This document shows positions 22,643 to 47,673 of a stretch of 64,000 bases of DNA, piece by piece; the first letter of the stretch is position 1; every line of letters starts with the position of its first letter. The stretch lies in assembly GCA_038087875.1 (NCBI GenBank), contig CM075990.1, forward strand, positions 11,038,001 through 11,102,000, written 5' to 3'. Under the pieces are notes generated by a model. It was not told where the DNA came from and made no database searches. It was given only the letters and a program-made list of their open reading frames with translations. The DNA is from Malacoraja senta (lineage: Eukaryota). The position numbers were made by a program, and so were the translations under genes.

Positions 22643-25600
22643 TAAATTTTTAATAAAATTCTGAATATAATTGCAGAATCTAATTATCAAAATGTTATAA
22701 TCGGAGGAGATTTTAATTGTGTTTTAGATCCTTATTTAGATAAATCGATGCAAAAACAAAAAGGTCAGACGAAATCTAAAACCAGTGAACTCTTACACAC
22801 ATATATGGAAAACACAAATATAACAGATGTATGGAGGATTGCAAACCCGACGGGAAGGGATTACTCGTTTTATTCAATGGTGCATAAAACATATTCACGG
22901 ATAGGCTATTTTCTTGTGGATACAAAATTAATTCCGCAATCTCTGAATCCTAAATATCATATTAATGCGATCTCAGATCATTCTCCGTTAACTTTTGTTC
23001 TAAAACTAGAAGGAATGTCTATGAATAAACCGTTCTGGAGGTTTAACTCACAAATTTTAAAAGACCCTCAAGGGAGTATCTATCTAAAAAAACAGATGGA
23101 TCTATTTTTTGAGTTAAATGATACACCAGAGATATTCCCCACGTTATTATGGGAATCCTTCAAAGCATTTATAAGAGGAGTCATTATTTCATTTCAAGCT
23201 TATCAAAATAAAAAGAATAAGAATGAACAAAGACACTTAGAAGATCAAATAAAACAGTTAGATATAGATAATGCTAAAGACCCAACTATGGATAAACATA
23301 ATAAAATACTACTACTGAAATTTCAGTTAAATAAATTACTGTCAGAGAAAGTTATAACATTATTTCAAATCACAAAACAAGAACACTTCGAATTCGGGGA
23401 CAAACCCCACAAACTTCTAGCACGACAACTTAAAAAACGGGAAAAAGAGAATGCAATATTAAAGATTAAATCAGATAGAGGGGAAGTATTAACACTACCC
23501 AAGGATATTAATAAAAGATTTGCTCAATTTTACCAGAATCTATACACATCTAAAACGTCAATAGACAATAATAAAATCTCAGAATTTTTAGATAATTGTA
23601 ATCTACCACAATTAGAACGCAGGGAACAAGAGGAACTGGGAGCACAAATTACTTCTAAGGAGATAGAAGACACAATAAAAACACTAAAAAATGGAAAAAC
23701 ACCAGGACCAGACGGATTCAGTAATGAATTTTATAAATCTTTTTATGATATAGTTACTCCACGATTACAAAAAATGTATACATATGCTTATAAAGAGCAA
23801 AACCTACCTGAAACACTAGCGGAATCAACGATCATATTAATACTTAAAAAAGATAAAAATATAGAAGAACCAGGATCATATAGAGCTATTGCTTTATTAA
23901 ATACGGATCAGAAAATAATAGCAAAAACATTAGCCAATAGATTAAGCATGTTAGTAGACTAATACATGAGGATCAAACAGGATTTATACCTAAGAGACAC
24001 TCATTTAATAATTTGAGACGTTTGCTTAACATAATGCATTCACATAAATCTTATGACCAAGAGTTAGCTATCATCTCACTGGACGCAGAAAAAGCGTTTG
24101 ATCAAGTAGAATGGGACTATATGATCAAAGTATTGCAAAAATTCCAATTGGGAGAAAACTTTATTGCATGGATAAAACTACTATATAACAAACCTACGGC
24201 TAGAATACTAACTAATAATATTATCTTCAAAATTCGAATTATCTAGGGGCAACAGACAAGGATGTTCACTATCACCGCTGTTATTTGCTTTGGTAATCGA
24301 ACCCCTTGCTGAAAAAATAAGAACACACTCGAATATTCACGGTTATAACACAAAATATTCAAACAACAAACTATCCCTATATGCTGATGATGTACTACTG
24401 TACATCACAAAACCACAAATTAGTATACCAAATATATTAAACTTAATTGAGGACTTTGGATCCTTTTCAGGATATAGAATAAATTGGAATAAAAGTGAAA
24501 TTATGTCGATTAAACCAAAAGACTCAACACATCTCAGGAAATTCCCTTTTAAAATAGCTATGGAAAAATTCAAATATTTAGGAATTGAGATTACTAGAAA
24601 TTACCATGATATGTTTAAAGCTAATTATAATCCCCTACTTAAGAAATTAAATAATTTGATTAAATTTTGGAAAACACTTCCGATGTCCTTAATAGGTAGG
24701 ATAAATGCTATAAAAATGATTTTCTTACCACAAATCCTTTACCTATTTCAATCAATACCTATATATCTCCCAAAAAAGTTTTTCAAAAAACTGGACTCAG
24801 ACATTACAAATTTTATATGGGATTACAAATCCCACAGAATACAAAGAACACACCTTAACAAACGAAAAGAGTTGGGGGGTCTAGCGCTCCCTAACTTTAT
24901 GTATTATAACTGGGCAGTAAATATTAAAAATATGATTCACCTGCTGGACAATTCTGCCCAGCAGGTGGACTGGATTATAATGGAAAAAGGGGATTGCTCC
25001 CCGAATAATATAGGAGCGATTATTCTCTCTCCAATAAATTTGAATAATAAAAATTATAATAAAAATCCAATTATATATAGCACTATTAGAACATGGAAGC
25101 AAATAAAACAGAATCTAAAATTAAGAAACCTATCTCTCTTAATACCAATAGTCAATAACCCATCGTTTAAACCTTCAATCATAGATAAATCATTTATACA
25201 ATGGGAAAGAATGGGAATCAAAACGCTCGAAGATTTGTATGAATTAGAAAAATTATTATCATTCCAACAACTACAACTGAAATATAATTTGAAAAATAAT
25301 CAATATTTTAAATATCTACAAATCTGTGACTATTTGAAAACACACACAAAAGATTATTATAATATGCCTTCCGACTTACTAGATGAAGCAATGAAGACAA
25401 AGGCGGAATCAGTTAATTTAATATCATACTTATATAATATCATCTTAAACATAGAAATACCCACAACAGATGGAATCAGAAGAGATTGGGAACAAGATCT
25501 AGGTATAAAAATTTCAAAAGAGAGTTGGGATAATCATTTATTACAGGTGCATAAATGCTCGATCAATGTACGACATACGCTTATCCAATTTAAAACATTA

Positions 25601-26459
25601 CATAGATTATATTATTCAAAAACCAAACTAAATAAAATCTTTCCTAACGTCTCACCAATCTGTGATAAATGTATATGTCAAGAAGCTACCATAGCACATT
25701 CTTTTGTTTTTTGTACAAAAATCCAAAAATTCTGGTTTGAAATATTTGATACTTTTTCAAAATTAATCAAAATAAAACTGGTACCAAAACCAGAATGGAT
25801 TATTTTTGGAATATCGGAAGGTATTCCTGAATTAAACGTGTATCAGAAGAATTTACTCAATTATGGGCTAATAATGGGAAAAAAGCTTATACTTAAATTC
25901 TGGAAAAATGCACCCACACCAACAATAAAAATGTGGACATCAAATATGTTGGAAACATTACATCTGGAAGAGATGAGATTCCTCCTAGTAGGCAAAGTAG
26001 ACCAATTTCAAAAGACGTGGTCTACGTTTTTGGACCTATTACAAGCATGAGGTGCAATAGTAATTTAGAAAAACAAATAAATAAATAAAAGGTATCTGGA
26101 CCTGGTAATGGGAGGTAAAACAAAAACAGACTTGGTTGGTAGTTCCTTCTCTATGAAGTATGTTATAAGAGTTATAATAGAGCGATTGTTCCTTCTTTCT
26201 TTCTCTTTCTTTTCTAGGGTCTATTTTCTAACTTTACTTCCTTCTCTAACTTCTTTTCTAAGGGGCTTTCTTTTCCCAACACTCTTTTGCACTTCACAAC
26301 CTTTGCGCACTTTCTTCACTTTTCTTACTTCTTTCTTTTTCTTTCTTAAAGTTTAAAAAAGTGAAGCGGTACAAAAAATGTATTAATATATACGTGTTGT
26401 ACATTACTGTAATCTACCGTACTTCTATTAAAAAAATTATTTAAAAAAAAAAAAAAAAA
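22643..26459 (+). mobile_element. L1-clade LINE, 5'-truncated, ORF2 broken by two frameshifts
   Basis: Endonuclease motifs IIGGDFNC and SDHSP; RT motifs KTPGPDG, SLDAEKAFD, YADD; C-terminal CDKC..HSFVFC; poly(A) tail; 15-bp TSD aattaaatctgaaat at 22628..22642 and 26460..26474. Confidence 0.95.
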
Positions 26460-28690
26460 AATTAAATCTGAAATAAGCAAAGAACATATTTCAATAATGG
26501 TGATGAAGTACATACAAAAAATCAGCGTTTTGCCTATTGTTTTGTTTATATGCTATACTGCTCTTTTATTTAATAGTTCAGTCCATATGCAACACAGCAA
26601 TATGAATCTGAATTGTACTCTGAAAGGGATTTTACAGCTTGGAACACCTGAATAATTTGTTGTAAAATGCTGCTCCAGTGGTTTCTTAAGAACATAAGAA
26701 GGAGGAACAGAGGATCCTATTCAGCCCCTCGAGTCCGTTCACTGTTCCGTGGGATTACGACTGACCTGACATTACTCAAGTCCTTGATTCTGCCCTTTCC
26801 CCATAACTCTTGATTCTCTAGCTAATTAAAAATGTATTTACTGTGCATTTCAAGCCTGTATGAACTTCACAAGGATAGCCAATCTTTCTTTGTTGCAACT
26901 CAAATGGAAATGGTGAGGCATCCTTATGGTGACTGAGTTCAGGGCTTCTGCTTTTGAGACATTACATATGGTTTATACCACTGGTAAGCATTGCTACATA
27001 TTTACATGTGCACATGTTGAATTGGTATAAGGATGGGTGGTACTGTGATGTCTGAACTGGAAATCCCAGAAAAACCCCCATGCAGGTCACGTGGAGAACA
27101 TACGAATTCTGTACAGACAGCACCCGTAGTCAGGATTGACTCTGGCGCTGTAAGGCAGCAACTCTACTGCTGCGCTGCTGTGCTACAACATAGCTGAGAA
27201 TAAAATACTTTGCTGCTGGTCTTGAGTCACAAGGGCCAGATTGAGTAAAGTGGCAGGTACCTTCCGTTGAGAACATAATTGAATCATTTGGGTTTTGGAG
27301 TCATCGTCTGACAGCAGAGAAACAGGCCTTTTGACATACTTTATCAATGCCGACCATCAAGTGCCCACCTATTTATCAGTACTTAGTTCATACCTTGATG
27401 ATATAAATGCTCGTCTAGAAGGTCCTTAAATGTTACAAGAATCTCTGACTCTACCAGCCCCTCAGGCAGTGTCTTTTAGATTTTAATCAACCACTGCTCT
27501 GAGGCCATGATTTTCAAACACTGTTTGACCAAAGGCATCTTATCGACAAACATGCAGCTTTACGTTCAGCACTAACAGCATTTAACTTTTTAAATTATAA
27601 AAAAATCATATTGTTAGTTGAACAATATATTTAAGCGAAATTGTTTGATGCAGGAAATCCCCCTCAGATCCAGTGCCATGTAATACCCATTGTGGTGAAA
27701 GAATGCCTTGACCAGTCCCAGGGAGCCGTTGGAGTAATATTGTTAGTGAAAATAAATCTCTCACGGAATAAGAGTAAGGACAAACAAACCACACCCCGTT
27801 GGGCAATCTATCTAATTCAGAACACCACTTAAGTTTAAATTGCCTTTCTAATTACTTTCCTAAATTGTGTTCTGCATTCTAAATTGTAATTTCCTGTCTT
27901 ATGTGTTCTACTTGTGCATGACGCTTAACTTTACGAAGCGAGACTACAGATGCCAGGAGATCTGTGAAGTCTGATCTTTGCTGTTAGTGCTATGCAGCCT
28001 CAGCAGATCCAGATGCCCTGTCCACATCGCTCTGACCTTCAAGGCTTTTCTGATAAAACTGCCCACATCTTCATCTGAAAGAACAACGAATATTCCCTTT
28101 ATTGAACACTCATAGAAATAGGTGCAGGAGGAGGCCATTTGGCCCTTCGAGTCTGCATCGCCATTCATTGTGATCATGGCTGATCATCCACAATCAGTAA
28201 CCCGTGCCTGCCCTCTCCCCATATCCCTTGATTCCGCACTCCTTGCAAGAGGCCCCCCGCCCCTTCTAATTATGGCGATAAATGCAATTTTATGGCCATT
28301 AAAATACACTTGCACCCCTTCACCTTTTTTCCCCACCTATCTTCTGAAGCCATTTTTCTTCAGTTCCTGTTGTTCATGTGACCTGATTCACTTAGCTCTC
28401 ACTTTCCCTGACCTTTTGATTTGATGTTGATTCTCATGCTGATGCCTGCCTTGGATTCTTAACATCATAAAATGCTCAGTCTATTCCAAAACTATCAATG
28501 TCAAATACAACCACCTACTCATAAAATACAAAAACCTTGAGGTTGAGAGTCGTTCTCGGGAAGATTTTTTTTCACGCATAGGGTGATTGCAACCTGGAAT
28601 CCACTTCAGATTAAGTGTCACAACCTGAAATGTCAACCATCCACTTCCCTGTCCATAGGTGCCGCCTGATCCACTGAGTTCCTCCAGCAG

Positions 28691-31511
28691 AATATGATAT
28701 AGTTGGGATCACGGAGACATGGCTCCAGGGTGACCAAGGCTGGGAGCTGAACATCCAGGGATATTCAATATTCAGGAGGGATAGACAGAAAGGAAAAGGA
28801 GGCGGGCTAGCGTTGCTGGTTAGAGAGGAGATTAACGCAATAGAAAGGAAGGACATTAGCTTGGAGGATGTGGAATCGATATGGGTAGAGCTGCGAAACA
28901 CTATGGGGCAGAAAACGCTAGTGGGAGTTGTGTATAGGCCACCTAACAGTAGTAGTGGAGTTGGGGATGGCATCAAACGGGAAATTAGAAATGCGTGCAA
29001 CAAAGGTAAAACAATTATAATGGGTGACTTCAATCTACATATACATTGGGAGAATCAAATTGGCAGGGGTGCTGAGGAAGAGGATTTCTTGGAATGTATG
29101 CGGGATAGTTTTCTAAACCAACATGTAGAGGAACCAACGAGAGAGCAGGCTATTCTAGACTGGGTATTGAGTAATGAGGAAGGGTTAGTTAGCAGTCTTG
29201 TTGTGCGTGGCCCCTTGGGCAAGAGTGACCATAATATGGTTGAGTTCTTCATTAGGATGGAGAGTGACATTGTTAATTCAGAAACAAGGGTCCTGAACTT
29301 AAAGAAAGGTGACTTTGAGGGTATGAGATGTGAATTGGCCAAGATAGACTGGCAAATTATTCTTAAAGGGTTGACGGTGGATATGCAATGGAAGGCATTT
29401 AAAAACTGCATGGATGAACTACAACAATTGTTCATCCCAGTTTGGCAAAAGAATAAATCGGGGAAGGTAGTGCATCCGTGGATAACCAGGGAAATCAGGG
29501 ATAGTATCAAAACAAAAGATGAAGCGTACAAATTAGCCAGAAAAAGCAGCCTACCAGAGGACTGGGAGAAATTCAGAGTCCAGCAGAGGAGGACAAAAGG
29601 CTTAATTAGGAAAGGGAAAATAGATTATGAAAGAAAACTGGCAGGGAACATAAAAACTGACTGCAAAAGTTTTTATAGATATGTGAAGAGGAAAAGATTA
29701 GTTAAAACAAATGTAGGTCCCTTGCAGTCAGAAACAGGCGAATTGATCATGGGGAACAAGGACATGGCAGACCAATTGAATAACTACTTTGGTTCTGTCT
29801 TCACTAAGGAAGACATAAATAATCTGCCGGAAATAACAAGGGACCGGGGGTTAAATGAGATGGAGGAACTGAGTGAAATCCAGGTTAGCTGGGAAGTGGT
29901 GTTAGGTAAATTGAATGGATTAAAGGCCGATAAATCCCCAGGGCCAGATAAGTTGCATCCCAGAGTACTTAAGGAAGTAGCTGCAGAAATAGTGGATGCA
30001 TTAGTGATAATTTTTCAAAACTCTTTAGATTCTGGAGTACGTCCTGAGGACTGGAGGGTAGCTAATGTAACCCTACTTTTTAAAAAGGGAGGGAGAGAGA
30101 AAACGGGGAATTACAGACCAGTTAGTCTAACATCGGTGGTGGGGAAAATTCTGGAGTCAGTTATTAAAGATGGGACAGCAGCGCATTTGGAAAGTGGTGA
30201 ATTCATTGGACAAAGTCAGCATGGATTTATGAAAGGTAAATCATGTCTGACGAATCTTATAGAATTTTTCGAGGATGTAACTAGTAGAGTGGATAAGGGA
30301 GAACCAGTGGATGTGTTATATCTGGACTTTCAGAGGCTTTCGACAAGGTCCCACATAAGAGATTAGTATGCAAACTTAAAGCACACGGTATTGGGGGTTC
30401 AGTATTGATGTGGATAGAGAACTGGCTGGCAGACAGGAAGCAAAGAGTAGGAGTAAACGGGTCCTTTTCAGAATGGCAGGCAGTGATTAGTGGGGTACCG
30501 CAAGGCTCAGTGCTGGGACCCCAGCTATTTACAATATATGTTAATGATCTGGATGAGGGAATTGAATGCAACATCTCCAAGTTTGCAGATGACACAAAGC
30601 TGGCGGGCAGTGTTAGCTGTGAGGAGGATGCTAGGAGGCTGCAAGGTGACTTGGATAGGTTGGGTGAGTGGGCAAATGCATGGCAGATGCAGTATAATGT
30701 GGATAAATGTGAGGTTATCCACTTTGGTGGCAAAAACAGGAAAGTAGACTATTATCTGAATGGTGGCCGATTAGGAAAAGGGGAGATGCAACGAGACCTG
30801 GGTGTCATGGTACACCAATCATTGAAAGTAGGCATGCAGGTGCAGCAGGCAGTGAAGAAAGCAAATGGTATGTTAGCATTCATAGCAAAAGGATTTGAGT
30901 ATAAGAGCAGGGAGGTTCTACTGCAGTTGTACAGGGTCTTGGTGAGACCACACCTGGAATATTGCGTACAGTTTTGGTCTCCTAATCTGAGGAAAGACAT
31001 TCTTGCCATAGAGGGAGTACAGAGAAGGTTCACCAGACTGATTCCTGGGATGGCAGGACTTTCATATGAAGAAAGACTGGATAGACTCGGCTTGTACACG
31101 CTAGAATTTAGAAGATTGAGGGGGGATCTTATAGAAACTTACAAAGTTCTTAAGGGGTTGGACAGGCTGGATGCAGGAAGATTATTCCCGATGTTGGGGA
31201 AGTCCAGAACTAGGGGTCACAGTTTAAGGATAAGAGGGAAGTCTTTTAGGACCGAGATGAGAAAATCATTTTTTACACAGAGAGTGGTGAATCTGTGGAA
31301 TTCTCTGCCACAGAAGGTTGTTGAGGCCAGTTCATTGGCTATATTTAGGAGTAAGATGTGGCCCTTGTGGCTAAAGGGATCAGGTGGTATGGAGAGAAGG
31401 CAGGGATGGGTTACTGAGTTGGATGATCAGCCATGATCATATCGAATGGCGGTGCAGGCTCGAAGGGCCGAATGGCCTACTCCTGCACCTATTTTCTATG
31501 TTTCTATGTTT
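28691..31511 (+). mobile_element. CR1-clade LINE, 5'-truncated, with most of ORF2 (endonuclease + RT)
   Basis: ORFs 28813..30366 and 30405..31436 (GDFN, SDH, KSPGPD, YRPVSLTS, GVPQGSVLGP, FADDTK) joined by a frameshift near 30335; ends in ttctatgt repeats. Confidence 0.95.
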
Positions 31512-33998: not shown

Positions 33999-34645
33999 GT
34001 ATGTATATATCTGAAGATCTCTATGTTTGGATAATGATAAGTAGAACTCAATATCTAATCTTTTTTGGGTGGTCATTCAAGTTTTGCAGGTTTTGAGATG
34101 GCCGGCTTCAATTCTGACCTTGGGTAATATCTGTATGGAATGAAGCCATAGACTGGCTTCAATTCTGACCTTGGGTAATAACTGTATGGAATTTGCATGT
34201 TTTTCCTTTGACTGTATGAATCGCCTCTGAATGCTCCAGTTTTTTTCCACGCCCCCAAATGCGTGGGTTTCTAAGTTATTTGGCTGCTGTAAATTGCCAA
34301 AAGTGTGTAGGTGAATGATAGAATCTGGGGTGGGTTGATGAGAATGTAGGGAGAATAAAAAGTGGAATTGATGTATGATTGCTCGCAAGTTAGAGGAGCA
34401 AAATTAAGCCATTCAGCCCATCATGGCTACTGCCACTCAATCATAGCTGATCAATCTTTCCTTCTCAACCCTCTCATTGATTGCTAATTTGGTGGGTTGA
34501 AGGGCCTGTTTCCCTGCTGTATCCCTGTATTTTATCTCTTATTTATTATATATTCTATCAGTATCTCTGACTAGTTCAGATACAGATGTAGCAGGAGATG
34601 CTGTTAAGGGTCATGCCATTTATTGTATATTTACCCATTACTTTC

Positions 34646-34806
34646 TGTAGTGTATTTGGGTGCTTGGAACTGACTCAAAAGAACTCTCAGATACAGGAGT
34701 AAACAGACAAGCTTCTTTATTCTAGGACGCCACCTTGAGTTTCCCCCAGCGCATGCGTCCCCTTGCACAAGACATAACATATGCTAATTATATTACATAC
34801 ATCACA
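34646..34806 (-). repeat. 3' LTR
   Basis: tgtagtgtatt...catacatcaca; 3 mismatches to the other LTR; AATAAA on the minus strand at 34716..34721. Confidence 0.95.
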
Positions 34807-34821
34807 CTGCTCCCCCTTTAA
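34807..34821 (-). promoter_or_regulatory. Polypurine tract of the LTR element
   Basis: Minus strand ttaaagggggagcag directly abuts the 3' LTR; a second copy lies 55 bp further inside. Confidence 0.85.
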
Positions 34822-35068
34822 CTTGGAGGCAGGTAACACCATTTACATTATATACATTACACTGCTCCCCCTTTAGCTTGGAGGCGAATAACACCATTTC
34901 TATTACATTAAATATAATTGATTAACACACTGTTGCAAAATTATATTATTACAGTCATCTTACATTACATCCTCATAACTGTAATAATCGTATCTAAACT
35001 TAGCACTTATAATGGTTCATTCCACTCATCTTCCTTAAACCAAATACATTACCCCTTGCTTTTTGTGT

Positions 35069-35578
35069 TATCCTTTTCCGTTCCCTTCTGTGTAAATTGC
35101 ACACTCTTTCTAATCACTCTAGCTCTACCTGTATCTCTGCCTCTTCCCTTTTTAAATATCCTAATCTAATTCGCAGATTTCTTCCTGTTCTTGATATTCT
35201 GCTAAAGTTAACATTTCCTCTGTTTCTGTTCCTTATTTGTAGGTGGGATCTGACACATGACTGCAGGTTTTTGTTTTTCAGCAGCTTCCTCTGTCGCTCA
35301 ATTTCCTGGCGCTGCGTACTTATCTGCTCTTGTTGTATAATAACATTCTGCAATGCATAACCATTTGTCCATTGCTCAGTGAAGGAAGCTCCATGCTGGA
35401 CTATAGTGAAGTGTCCTAATCGCAATCGATCCTGCATACTTTTATCTCGACCGACAAGCCTCTCTTCTTTAGACTTTTCTATTAACAGCTTTTTGCTCAT
35501 CGTCACACATTTATTTAACCGTTCTTTGTATCGCTTAAGCCTTTTCTGTTGTTCATCTATTTGTCGTCTTAAATCACC
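35069..35578 (-). pseudogene. TLK2: Captured intronless fragment of Tousled-like kinase (TLK2-like) coiled-coil region; kinase domain absent; decayed
   Basis: [73 protein letters not shown]; then, across frameshifts, [58 protein letters not shown] and GYA favour TLK2 over TLK1. Confidence 0.88.
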
Positions 35579-36595
35579 TTTCTGGTTATTCATCAAGAAG
35601 TAGGATCTATATTGTCTTTGCAATACAACAGTTGCTTTGATTTGCGCTCTGTATATTTTTCTTACTACATAAGCACGGTAGTGAGACTGCACTACAACTG
35701 CTGTATAAATCAGTTTGAGGAAGTCTTTCCTATATCGTTTAAGCCTTTTGTATCGTTTAAGCCATTTCTGTTGTGCATCTATTGTATTACCGTAGCCCTC
35801 TTTTGCTTAACCCACTGCCTAACCACCATACTCTTGTAGGCAGCCTGAATGGTAATGGTTGCGTACCTCATTGACTGATATTGCACAAACTGGGAATGCC
35901 CTATTTTGCATGCTTTGTACCATCTCTGGATCGAAATGACTGCTTGTCGAATAGCTCTGTACCGTATCCTTAATCGGTAACCACGGTATGCAGCTTGCAG
36001 AGTGACTACAGCCGCCTTTTGCATCAAGAAATGCTTTCTTGTAATGCACATCCTTATGAATGACTTAATATGGCGTGCTGCCTTGATTTTCTCAACCAAT
36101 TCTCTGGCTTTAATCCTGCGGTAGAAGGCCTGAATACACACCACTGCTTTTCTCAAACTATTATACTGTCTCACTTGGACATCTCTTATCTGGCATGCTC
36201 TGCATCGTTGCTGTACCGCAATGGCAGACCAGCATAGTTTCTTGAAATACTGGCGCTGTTCATGCATCTGATAATAAGTCTGTATGACCTTGGCAGACTT
36301 GTGCATGCACCGCAATTGCTTTTGAACAACCATTCCTCGGTAGGCAGCCTGAAGCAGTACAACGCTTCTGCGTACCTTCATGTACGTTTTGCGATCACTT
36401 TCCATTTGAAGGTGTGCCCTATAATGGGTTTGTACTATTATAGCTGCTAATTTCATTGCCTTGTATTGACGGTATACTCTGTGCCTTCTAAATGCTGCTT
36501 GTATTTCCGTTGCTGCCTTCTGTTTGTTCCGGATCTCTCTCCGAACCTTCATACCACTGAATGCAGCTTGAATAGCTAGGGTTGCCCTTTGGATG
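35579..36595 (-). pseudogene. ASPM: Captured ASPM IQ-repeat (calmodulin-binding) fragment
   Basis: About 13 tandem IQ-like motifs (IQAAFRR, VQTHYRA, LQAAYRG, IQAFYRR, IQRWYKA, VQSHYRA...) with ASPM-like spacing; IQRWYKACKIGHSQFVQYQSMRYATITIQ resembles the distal IQ region of vertebrate ASPM. Confidence 0.82.
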
Positions 36596-36618
36596 GCAAT
36601 TTCCCTTTGCCTTTGACT

Positions 36619-36744
36619 TCTGTCACTTTGCATTTGCCCTTTGTCCCTTTGCACTTGACCTGTGTCCTTTTGCACTTGACCTGTGTCCTTTTGCACTTGA
36701 CCTTGGTCCCTTTGCACTTGACCTGTGTCCCTTTGCACTTGACC
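36619..36744 (-). repeat. 21-bp coding tandem repeat, 6 copies (GQVQ[KR]D[TQK])
   Basis: Plus-strand unit tgtgtccttttgcacttgacc; in frame with ORF 35779..36906. Confidence 0.9.
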
Positions 36745-37207
36745 TTTCTTTTCTTTTTGCTTGGTGCCGTTCCACTTTGTTTCCAAACACAACCTCTTCT
36801 TTTTAACTTGTTTTTTTTTCTCTTGACAGCCCTTCTTCTTTGTTCTTTTCTGTTCTTTTATCCTCGTTGCCTCGTTATCCTTGTGTGTTCTGGTGTAGCA
36901 ATTCACCTAAAACTTAGCTGTACAAAGATTATTCAGCTTGAGGAATTCGACAAAAAAAACTCAGTCTAAAATGTGTAACATTCCGAAGGACGACATCTTG
37001 CCACGTAGACACAACATAGAGATAGCCTTACAAAACTCGCCGACTTGTACAGCTGGTGTTTTAAACTACAGTCCCCGTCATAGAGGGATCTGCAGGCCTC
37101 TCATGTCCAGCTCGCAAACAACTGCGACACAACTCCGTATCTACTGTTTAAACTGTTAAACAATCCTGCTTGTTGCAAAACAGTCCTGCGGGTGAGTATC
37201 GCGAACT

Positions 37208-37225
37208 ATCCCATCCTCGTCACCA
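37208..37225 (-). promoter_or_regulatory. Primer-binding site complementary to the tRNA-Ser(GCU) 3' end
   Basis: Minus strand TGGTGACGAGGATGGGAT, 2 bp from the 5' LTR; plus strand ATCCCATCCTCGTCACCA vs recalled tRNA-Ser-GCT end ATCCCATCCTCGTCGCCA (17/18). Confidence 0.85.
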
Positions 37226-37227
37226 AT

Positions 37228-37388
37228 TGTAGTGTATTTGGGTGCTTGGAACTGACTCTAAAGAACTCTCAGATACAGGAGTAAACAGACAAGCTTCTTT
37301 ATTCTAGGACGCCACCTTGAGTCTCGCCCAGCGCATGCGTCCCCTTGCACAAGACATAACATATGCTAATTATATTACATACATCACA
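37228..37388 (-). repeat. 5' LTR
   Basis: 161 bp, 158/161 identical to 34646..34806, adjacent to the PBS. Confidence 0.95.
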
Positions 37389-37526
37389 CTTTCTACCTCC
37401 CAAAGTGAACACCTTGCACTCGGATTAAGCTTCATCTGCCATTTCACTGCTGATCTATCCTGTTGTTACTTTTACAGCCTTCCTCACTATTCACAACCCC
37501 AGCAATCTTGGTGTCAACTGCAAACG

Positions 37527-37628
37527 TACCAACCCGATTACATTTAGTTCCAAGTCATTTGCATGTATCACAAACTGTTGTTTGTGATGCATGCAAATGA
37601 CTTGGAACTAAATGTAATCGGGTTGGTA
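37527..37628. repeat. Near-perfect inverted repeat (49-bp arms, 4-nt loop)
   Basis: 37527..37575 is the reverse complement of 37580..37628 with one mismatch. Confidence 0.95.
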
Positions 37629-37837
37629 AGTCCCAGCACAGATGCCTGTGGAACTCCACTGGTCACAGACCTCCAGTCTGAATATTGTTCTTCAACCATA
37701 ACCCTCTGTTCTTAATCCATGTTCTTAATCCATGCAACTAAATTACTAATAATCGCATGCATTTTAATCTGGATCAGTTTATCCGACGGGACTTTATCAT
37801 TTAGTAATTAATTTTGTAAACTACTGTTTTAACTTTT

Positions 37838-37901
37838 TGTCCGAGAAACCCCCAACATTGTCCGAGAAACCCCCAACATTTGTCCGAGAAACCCCCAACA
37901 T
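37838..37901. repeat. 21-22-bp tandem repeat, 3 copies
   Basis: tgtccgagaaacccccaacat(t) x3. Confidence 0.9.
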
Positions 37902-46062: not shown

Positions 46063-47673
46063 CATTGCCCTCCATATTGTTTGGGATAAAGACCCATCAT
46101 TTATTCATTTGCCTCTGTTCTCCACAATTTGAGATTTGTAATAGAAAAAAATCACATGGTTAAAGTGCACATTGTCAGATTTTAATAAAGACAATTTTTA
46201 TACATTTTTGTTTCACCATGTTGAAATTACAGCAGTGTTTATACATAGTTCCCCCCCCCCCCCATTTCAGGGCACCATAATGTTTGGGACACAGCAGTGT
46301 AATGTAAATGAAAGTAATCATGTTTAGTGTTTTATTGCATATCCTTTGCATGCAATGACTGCTTGAAGTCTGCGATTGATGGACATCACCAGTTGCTAGG
46401 TGTCTTTAGCTTATGTGTGTTTTGGGGGCTAGTCCCCTTCAGTTTTCCCTTTAGCATATAAAAAGCGTGCTCAGTTGGGTTCAGATCAGGTGGTTGACCT
46501 GGCCACTCAAGAATTTACCATTTTTTTAGCTTTGAAAAACTCCTTTGTTGCTTTCCCAGTATGTTTGGGATCAATTGTCTTGCTGTAGAATGAACCGCCG
46601 GCCAATGAGTTTTGTGGCATTGTTTGAACTTGAGCAGAAAGGATATGTCTATACACTTCAGAATTCATTATGCTACTACCATCAGTAGTTGTATCATCAA
46701 TGAAGATAAGTGAGCCAGTACCTTCAGCAGCCATACATGCCCAGGTCATAACCCCCCCCCCACCACTGTGTCTCACAGATGAGGTGGTATGCTTTGGATC
46801 TTGGGCAGTTCCTTCTCTCCTCCATACTTTGTTCTTGCTATCACTCTGATACAAGTTAATGTCTCATCTGTCCACAAGACCTTTTTCCAGAACTGTGGTT
46901 GCTCTTTCAAGTACTTCTTGGCAAACAGTAACCTGGCCATCCTATTTTTGCAGCTAACCAGTGGTTTGCATCTTGCAGTGCAGCCTCTGTATTTCTGTTC
47001 ATGAAGTCTTCGGCGGACAGTGGCCATTGACAAATCCACTCCTGAAGAGTGTTTCTGATCTGTCGGGCAGGTGTTTGACCATTTTTCTTTATTATAGAGA
47101 ATTATTCTGTCATCAGCTGTAGAGGTCTTCCTTGGCCTGCCAGTCCCTTTGCGATTAGTAAGCTCACCAGTGCTCTCTTTCTTAATGATATTCCAAACAG
47201 TTGATTTTGGTAAGCCTAAGGTTTGGCTGATGTCTCTAACAGTTTTATTATTGTTTCTCAGTCTCGTAATGGCTTCTTTGACTTTCATTGGCACAACTTT
47301 GGTCCTCGTGTTGATAAACAGCAAAACGTTTCCAAAGGTGATGGAAAGACTAGGTGCTGAGAGCTCTCATATACCTGCATTAAGGAGGCATTTAAACATC
47401 CCTGAGCAATTAGAAACACCAGTGAAGCCGTGAGTCCCAAACATTATGGTGCCCTGAAATGGTGGGGGGGGGGGGGGGGGGGACCTATGTATAAACACAG
47501 CTGTAATTTCTACATGGTGAAACCAAAATGTATAAAAATGGTCTTTATTAAAACATGACAATGTGCACTTTAACCACATGTGATTTTGTTTCTATTACAA
47601 ATCTCAAATTGTGGAGTACAGAGGCAAATAAATAAATGATGGGTCTTTGTTCAAAACATTATGGAGGGCACTG
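46063..47673 (-). mobile_element. Near full-length Tc1-family transposon with ~225-bp IR/DR-type TIRs; transposase frameshifted
   Basis: TA then cattgccctccata... at left, ...tatggagggcactg at right; inner repeat cataatgtttgggac; minus strand gives HTH (GLPKSTVWNII, GRPRKT), WTDET, DPKHT, WPGQPPDLNPTEH. Confidence 0.93.

Follow-up and report, generated by a model that had tools for sequence, protein, structure and literature searches.

A 64,000-nucleotide stretch of the skate Malacoraja senta genome (GCA_038087875.1, CM075990.1, positions 11,038,001 to 11,102,000; hereafter the window) carries a dead copy, shortened by internal deletion, of a non-autonomous long terminal repeat (LTR) retrotransposon family. 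The element occupies window positions 34646-37390 with its coding sequence on the minus strand. Its interior joins an array of IQ motifs, assigned by protein similarity to ASPM, to a segment of the host gene TLK2. We consider it very likely that this copy belongs to a Ty3/gypsy-type family whose ASPM-TLK2 cargo was captured from mRNA and whose members are now decaying neutrally. An initial annotation of the same DNA had proposed a mobile two-gene retro-chimera within an LTR element, and the mRNA origin of the TLK2 segment, the single junction shared between copies and the independent insertions described below all support that proposal.

In the founder of the family, host cargo would have taken the place of pol entirely and of gag for the most part. 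The founder open reading frame (ORF) would have run through an ~86-residue Gag N-terminus, a linker, a 21-bp repeat, an ASPM IQ array of ~330 residues and, finally, TLK2 residues ~195-357. The cargo presumably entered as RNA, the likeliest route being template switching by reverse transcriptase (RT) between the element RNA and co-packaged host mRNAs. With the LTRs, primer-binding site (PBS), polypurine tract and leader retained, the chimera could have been copied and inserted by the Gag-Pol of a related autonomous element. It would thus have spread to at least ~100 places, with a 5-bp target duplication at each, after which the copies decayed neutrally.

The TLK2 segment derives from the host's own TLK2 mRNA. 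The host gene was located on contig C10 via the kinase domain of skate TLK2, and 40 kb upstream of it was fetched for exon comparison; a second, less similar paralogue lies on C6180, and the window itself is on C14. Five exons of the C10 gene match the element at 89-93% DNA identity (44 mismatches in 519 aligned columns; Table 1). They abut exactly where the host has four introns of ~3.3, 1.7, 1.1 and 1.3 kb, all of which are precisely absent; the cargo therefore came from a spliced transcript. At the protein level, the segment aligns with skate TLK2 residues 195-357 and matches the human TLK2 structure (PDB 5o0y_A, E 4e-48). Among the best 120 of 1134 protein matches every paralogue-specific name was TLK2, with cartilaginous fishes on top. 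The TLK2 kinase domain is absent from the element.

These results bear out the initial identification of an intronless TLK coiled-coil segment as TLK2: five exons are spliced exactly, and four exon joints are crossed. The ASPM/TLK2 junction peptide quoted at the time also matches the translation exactly, at window 35578/35577. The TLK reading frame, by contrast, is not intact. Compared with the host TLK2 mRNA, the element lacks 1 nt, carries a single T in place of ~29 nt, and lacks a further 1 nt, which shifts ~48 codons into another frame until the original one is restored. The ORF then ends at a TGA (35114-35116) where the host has CGA, at TLK2 residue ~357. Both the frameshifts and the stop are common to the window copy and to all four other copies read through this region.

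The junctions also bear on the route of capture. In most copies, the IQ array is interrupted by a 71-bp insert, which consists of the 47 nt with which the TLK2 segment begins plus a slipped 12-nt repeat. This insert is flanked by a 12-nt direct repeat, and its switch point shares GAC(T). An older subfamily has the uninterrupted form, without the insert, at at least 16 places, and the four that were fetched (L058-L061) are element copies. Thus, the insert originated within the family, probably when RT switched templates along the element's own RNA. The older-subfamily junction (..NQK/CDLRRQ) is closer to the host TLK2 exon than is the junction in the window, and in this form, the closest to the host, the TLK2 part begins 6 nt inside the exon.

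A start so close to the exon edge, nearer than a random switch would usually fall, is what might be expected if the cargo had been acquired by read-through transcription and splicing beside or inside host genes, with template switching accounting only for the 3′ join. This route is conceivable but rather unlikely. The TLK2 boundary does not coincide with the exon edge, the microsimilarity at the 71-bp insert is typical of template switches, and the location of the window and the host TLK2 gene on different contigs gives the route no direct support. An ASPM breakpoint at an exon end ('AAAG/GTAA') was also considered and dropped, as the two fetched of seven candidate places for such an exon end followed by GTAA were mutated element copies. 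Template switching among co-packaged RNAs would remain the better account of how both host segments entered the element.

Spread, Gag ancestry and decay of the family

A DNA search of the genome (1.94 Gb) gave 1268 first-look candidates, and ~35 of the 40 scored extend over the greater part of element positions 1-2101, at 89-94%. With the leader as the only query, 719 candidates were obtained, and the 40 scored match at 91-96%. A 40-mer spanning the ASPM/TLK2 junction was found, with up to 3 mismatches, at 101 places, whereas its reversed control was found at 0. A junction shared by 101 places points to a single capture event that was then amplified. Perfect 5-bp target-site duplications (TSDs) flank nine of 11 complete copies (four with short LTRs and five with a longer 5′ LTR) and comprise eight different pentamers. 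The mobility proposed in the initial annotation rests on these distinct duplications and on the 101 junction places. The family is a non-autonomous LTR retrotransposon: it has no RT or integrase of its own, and its insertions are many and independent.

Uninserted copies of the dispersed repeat that flanks the window element constitute a paralogous empty site. In all six that were fetched, the left flank is joined directly to the right flank, and a single CATTC-like pentamer stands at the position where the window has ctttc-element-ctttc. The ctttc is therefore a genuine TSD, as had been claimed from the window alone. A joint from 34636 to 37496, present on single contigs in four of four sequencing runs, was not used as an empty site, its sides being 21-30 nt long and within a high-copy repeat.

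Full copies measure 4.3-5.5 kb and hold ~1.6 kb between the leader and the 21-bp repeat that the window copy lacks. The 13 extended copies that were mapped in this size range have the same layout of Gag N-terminus and cargo, with no space for pol. The ORF of full copies starts with MAFQIVGNVPQLDSG...HFSPKP and runs in frame into the linker, the (GQVQKDx)n repeat, the IQ array and TLK2. Four copies (L018, L021, L025 and L005) have the Gag N-terminus, repeat and IQ array in a single frame, and the founder ORF comprises ~720 codons, in frame across three junctions. The leader-gag region varies by ~270-330 bp in length between copies; it includes a 38-bp tandem repeat (copy L021 4294-4408 and equivalents), in a region lost from the window copy.

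An exhaustive profile-free search with the Gag N-terminal piece recovered 729 relatives at E 1e-3 or better. A Pfam scan of 16 of these found RT, RNase H or integrase in eight, and several have PNMA or Retrotrans_gag at the N-terminus. Where pol is complete, its order is protease, RT, RNase H and integrase, the gypsy order. By this Gag ancestry the family is classed as Ty3/gypsy-type, a placement judged via the relatives as the element itself has no pol. Full-gag elements in the same genome share the LTR, leader and gag N-terminus with the family at 76-82% DNA (63-66% protein) identity, and the homology ends at gag residue 86. These elements are relatives rather than the helper itself; mobilization in trans by a related autonomous element would account for the insertions.

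The LTRs suggest that the family used two alternative plus-strand priming sites, by way of a 55-nt duplication at 34788-34897. In five of the 11 full copies (L041, L042, L045, L047 and L048) the 5′ LTR starts at the distal polypurine tract and reaches ~218 nt, and each of these five has its own perfect 5-bp TSD. The LTR pairs of individual copies differ at 2-8 positions, and family copies differ from one another by ~6-9%. If neutral substitution is assumed to proceed at close to 1e-9 per site per year, a rate not measured here, insertion ages would be roughly 6-25 million years. Sequence related to the element was also detected in sequencing runs of nine organisms, at shares of 0.05-0.48.

When one natural copy was compared with 18 others, mismatches at codon positions 1, 2 and 3 numbered 505, 443 and 459 (p = 0.11), counts that are non-independent with a single reference copy in all 18 comparisons. 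The lack of a third-position excess fits neutral decay. Stops occur in the IQ part of 23 of 34 scored copies, and the ORF is uninterrupted in none of the five copies for which ORFs were listed. Together, these data fit copies that now decay neutrally, and we infer that they have no present function. No RNA data set was listed among the runs with related sequence. Of four runs compared with the element, all made up of short contigs, two were probably DNA; one guessed to be RNA covers 23 of 30 bins, mostly at 90-95% likeness, and is no evidence on transcription.

Two proposals would nonetheless give the cargo a role. It is improbable, though worth stating, that the founder's 720-codon ORF aided the spread of the family, or that its 100+ copies feed small-RNA silencing that touches ASPM and TLK2. 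If the ORF did aid spread, its product could enter helper particles via the Gag N-terminus and self-associate via the TLK2 coiled coil; in either version, at least one skate copy would still be transcribed, as a RefSeq model hints. A little less probable again is that at least one copy is a working gene today, making a Gag-IQ-coiled-coil protein (a calmodulin sink or a competitor of TLK2 dimerization) or small RNAs that act on ASPM or TLK2.

The length of the founder ORF, in frame over its three junctions, and the open frames of 400-700 codons kept in some copies are what a working gene would require, and one Leucoraja copy has given rise to a RefSeq protein. This protein (XP_055489032.1, 'abnormal spindle-like microcephaly-associated protein homolog isoform X1') has 290 residues made up of the Gag N-terminus, repeat and IQ motifs, with a Gag N-terminus 91% identical to that of the family, and is likely a mis-annotated family copy. 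A gene under selection is hard to reconcile with the interrupted ORFs, the missing third-position excess and the ~48 frameshifted TLK2 codons in every copy seen. Moreover, no chimeric IQ+TLK2 protein was present among the best 120 of 8000 scored candidates (256-816 residues); those 120 were all TLK2, at 32-44% query coverage. The dominant-negative or calmodulin-sink effect envisaged in the initial annotation thus finds no support, as codon positions show no signature of selection in the decaying copies and no RNA data set was listed with related sequence.

Source of the IQ array

Protein comparisons support an ASPM origin for the IQ array. A search restricted to longer proteins returned 54 matches, with E values down to 1e-158. 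More than half of these (29) are named ASPM, abnormal spindle or assembly factor for spindle microtubules (E down to 1e-150); the remainder are mostly unnamed or 'CH domain-containing', with a CH+IQ architecture. The best pairwise alignment is to bird ASPM residues 697-935 and extends over 239 residues, ungapped, at 42% identity. It includes a 22-residue stretch that is missing from the paralogous IQ repeats. This stretch and the ungapped alignment indicate that the cargo corresponds to one particular part of the ASPM array, in agreement with the initial assignment.

Since IQ motifs are widespread, a myosin gene or another IQ-domain gene might be put forward as the source, and weak PDB matches to myosin (E 0.008-0.13) and the failure to find host ASPM could be cited in its favour. 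We regard this as very unlikely given the 29 ASPM-named matches, the lone myosin-type match at E 4.6e-6, and the collinear, ungapped alignment to one specific ASPM stretch. An assembly chimera or segmental duplication in place of a transposed element is less credible still: a few copy pairs do resemble segmental duplicates (C1:24981564/25019734 and C2:146170825/146225002), but the 101 junction-bearing places lie on many contigs, their TSDs differ, a paralogous empty site is present and related sequence occurs in the runs of nine organisms.

Several points weigh against a helper-mobilized, neutrally decaying family with ASPM-TLK2 cargo. The ASPM assignment rests on 28-44% protein similarity to other vertebrates, and the host ASPM gene was not located in the assembly by several protein, Pfam and DNA-pattern searches. 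The CH-domain and C-terminal stretches of bird ASPM and the Pfam ASH domain had no match in the genome, and all 34 scored matches (of 512 candidates) to whole bird ASPM were element copies. Of 26 places matching a 30-nt pattern built on the ASPM form without interruption, four were fetched, and all four belonged to the older element subfamily; a DNA pattern excluding the TLK2 continuation occurs at seven places, and two of two fetched were mutated element copies. Host ASPM was among neither set of fetched sequences. The best explanation of these failures is that distant queries are insensitive and that element copies swamp the results. In addition, none of three full-gag candidates was a helper with matching LTRs, the closest identity being 76-82%, and two of the 11 complete copies have no clear TSD. 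The codon-position comparison shares its reference copy throughout, and the Leucoraja RefSeq model, built on a family copy, could reflect transcription.

The window copy and its surroundings

The features of the window copy are collected in Table 1. Its two LTRs are identical at 160 of 163 positions (98%; 3 differences) and measure 161 nt each when trimmed to TG..CA, the length and ends originally described. A PBS and a polypurine tract had been reported as well: a TGG-initiated PBS-like 18-mer and the AAAGGGGGAG tract are indeed present and conserved across copies, whereas the primer tRNA was not identified. Two minus-strand ORFs remain. One (35779-36906, 375 codons) holds the main IQ array (Pfam IQ E 2.3e-15), and the other (35114-35806, 230 codons) encodes two further IQ motifs (Pfam IQ E 2e-4) followed by TLK2. 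Strict [ILV]Qxxx[RK] cores number 9+2, and degenerate ones are also present, so the earlier estimate of ~13 motifs was fair.

Two deletions distinguish this copy. With the larger, of 1569 bp, the Gag N-terminus was lost together with upstream leader sequence and some of the 21-bp repeat; the earlier statement that gag and pol motifs are lacking is correct for the window copy, but the family keeps an in-frame Gag N-terminus that was deleted here. The smaller, of 49 nt at ~35783-35786, splits the reading frame and reduces the 71-bp insert to a remnant. Without these 49 nt, the main IQ array no longer shares a frame with the last two IQ motifs and TLK2. Of the in-frame fusion first described, the junction is thus exact, but the main IQ array is out of frame with TLK2.

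Table 1. Features of the element copy in the window, with matching host TLK2 exons
Feature	Window position	Strand	Details
TSD, left copy (ctttc)	34641..34645	.	5 bp
3′ LTR (element orientation)	34646..34808	-	163 nt; TG..CA limits 34646-34806
Polypurine tract AAAGGGGGAG	34807..34819	-	adjoins 3′ LTR
Polypurine tract + 55-nt duplication	34807..34897	-	second polypurine-tract-like copy 34862-34874
3′ internal untranslated region	34898..35062	-	unmatched to host TLK2; conserved among copies
TLK2-derived segment	35063..35577	-	five host exons joined without introns; skate TLK2 residues ~195-375
TLK2 exon match 1	35577-35474	-	C10:14380653-756
TLK2 exon match 2	35475-35338	-	C10:14384054-191
TLK2 exon match 3	35336-35214	-	C10:14385896-6019
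TLK2 exon match 4	35212-35146	-	C10:14387131-198
TLK2 exon match 5	35147-35063	-	C10:14388490-573
Last two ASPM-type IQ motifs (DFLKL...FLMNNQKG)	35578..35746	-	Pfam IQ, protein alignment
71-bp internal insert remnant	35747..35783	-	second short copy of TLK2-segment start; 89% to host exon
Main ASPM-type IQ array	35784..36609	-	Pfam IQ; ASPM-named matches; collinear with bird ASPM 697-935
21-bp tandem repeat (GQVQKDx heptads)	36602..36748	-	copy number varies between element copies
Internal-deletion junction	36746..36752	-	1569 bp missing relative to copy L025
Leader	36752..37227	-	contains PBS-like site 37208-37225
PBS-like site	37208..37225	-	TGG-initiated 18-mer, 2 nt past 5′ LTR
5′ LTR (element orientation)	37228..37390	-	163 nt; TG..CA limits 37228-37388
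TSD, right copy (ctttc)	37389..37393	.	5 bp

The element sits in a very high-copy dispersed repeat (34400-34645 and 37394-37520). A 126-nt piece of this repeat gave 225 first-look candidates, and contigs cover it tens to hundreds of times more deeply than they cover the element. Just downstream of the element, the flanking repeat contains a near-perfect inverted repeat at 37524-37631, with 52-nt arms that are 96% complementary and a 4-nt spacer, and a 22-23-nt unit is present in three tandem copies at 37836-37901. Elsewhere in the window, a long interspersed nuclear element (LINE)-type ORF with an AP-endonuclease domain and RT lies at 28678-31436, and a second LINE-type RT ORF at 24212-26050 falls in an AT-rich stretch (GC 0.30-0.33 at 22-26 kb). 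A 197-codon frame on the minus strand at 46773-47366 encodes a Tc1/mariner-type transposase helix-turn-helix (Pfam HTH_Tnp_Tc3_2, E 9e-14). An Rfam scan of the whole window gave no match.

Significance and comparison with known systems

A literature search found no description linking ASPM, TLK2 and a retrotransposon. The family was absent among the best 10 of 305 matches for skate LTR retrotransposons and host genes, and a search on ASPM and Leucoraja gave an unrelated review only. The skate element is a clean vertebrate case in which an LTR retrotransposon shuffled exons and the shuffled product was then amplified on a large scale; earlier proposals of these two steps in animals drew mostly on loci with few copies. 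For genome annotation, ~100 copies can inflate ASPM and TLK2 gene-family counts in cartilaginous-fish genomes. The family is also a natural test bed for two questions: whether captured exon sequence draws transposable-element silencing onto the parental genes, and how a non-autonomous element with a Gag-fusion ORF can outcompete its helper.

Gag-onc fusions are characteristic of acutely transforming retroviruses, which are replication-defective and helper-dependent. The skate family resembles them in having a Gag N-terminus in frame with captured host coding sequence. Unlike them, it lacks env and an intact catalytic host domain, and it shows no sign of infectivity. The maize element Bs1 is low in copy number, and the skate family far exceeds it in this respect. 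The excerpted text of a review (PMC13317346) describes Bs1 as a non-autonomous LTR element with a hybrid ORF assembled from several host-gene fragments, and the skate family likewise has a multi-host-gene hybrid interior within a non-autonomous LTR element. Bs1, however, is a plant element built from three other genes and reported there as transcribed and translated, whereas the skate family is from a vertebrate, joins ASPM to TLK2 and is known from its sequence alone.

Among vertebrates, crocodilian endogenous retroviruses captured nectin3 or KIT-ligand mRNA, as set out in the excerpted part of Chong et al. 2014 (PMC4299795). Here too, a captured host mRNA displaces a viral gene in an LTR element, which then multiplies. 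The crocodilian elements are retroviruses with one whole host ORF each, with six nectin3 insertions and purifying selection reported in that excerpt. The skate family, in contrast, is a gypsy-type retrotransposon by its Gag ancestry, with fragments of two genes, ~100 copies and no sign of selection.

The closest parallels come from LTR-mediated retroposition in animals. Tan et al. 2016 (PMC5131818), in the portion of the paper drawn on here, describe chimeras with two parents and microsimilarity at the joins, and propose that such chimeric loci function as non-autonomous elements and undergo further retroposition; they also cite the mechanism of retroviral gene capture. As in those cases, pieces of spliced host mRNA replace the internal ORFs of the skate element, both LTRs are kept and each locus has two parents. 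The absence of introns from a parental segment, by which LTR-mediated retrocopies are recognized, is found here for TLK2; of the switch points, that of the later 71-bp insert shows microsimilarity. The cases in that portion of PMC5131818, from fly, mosquito, zebrafish, chicken and mammals, are young and have one or a few copies, whereas the skate chimera is old, is present at at least 101 places and retains an in-frame Gag N-terminus. The element family thus fits the known class of LTR-mediated gene capture, of which it is an unusually amplified new case.

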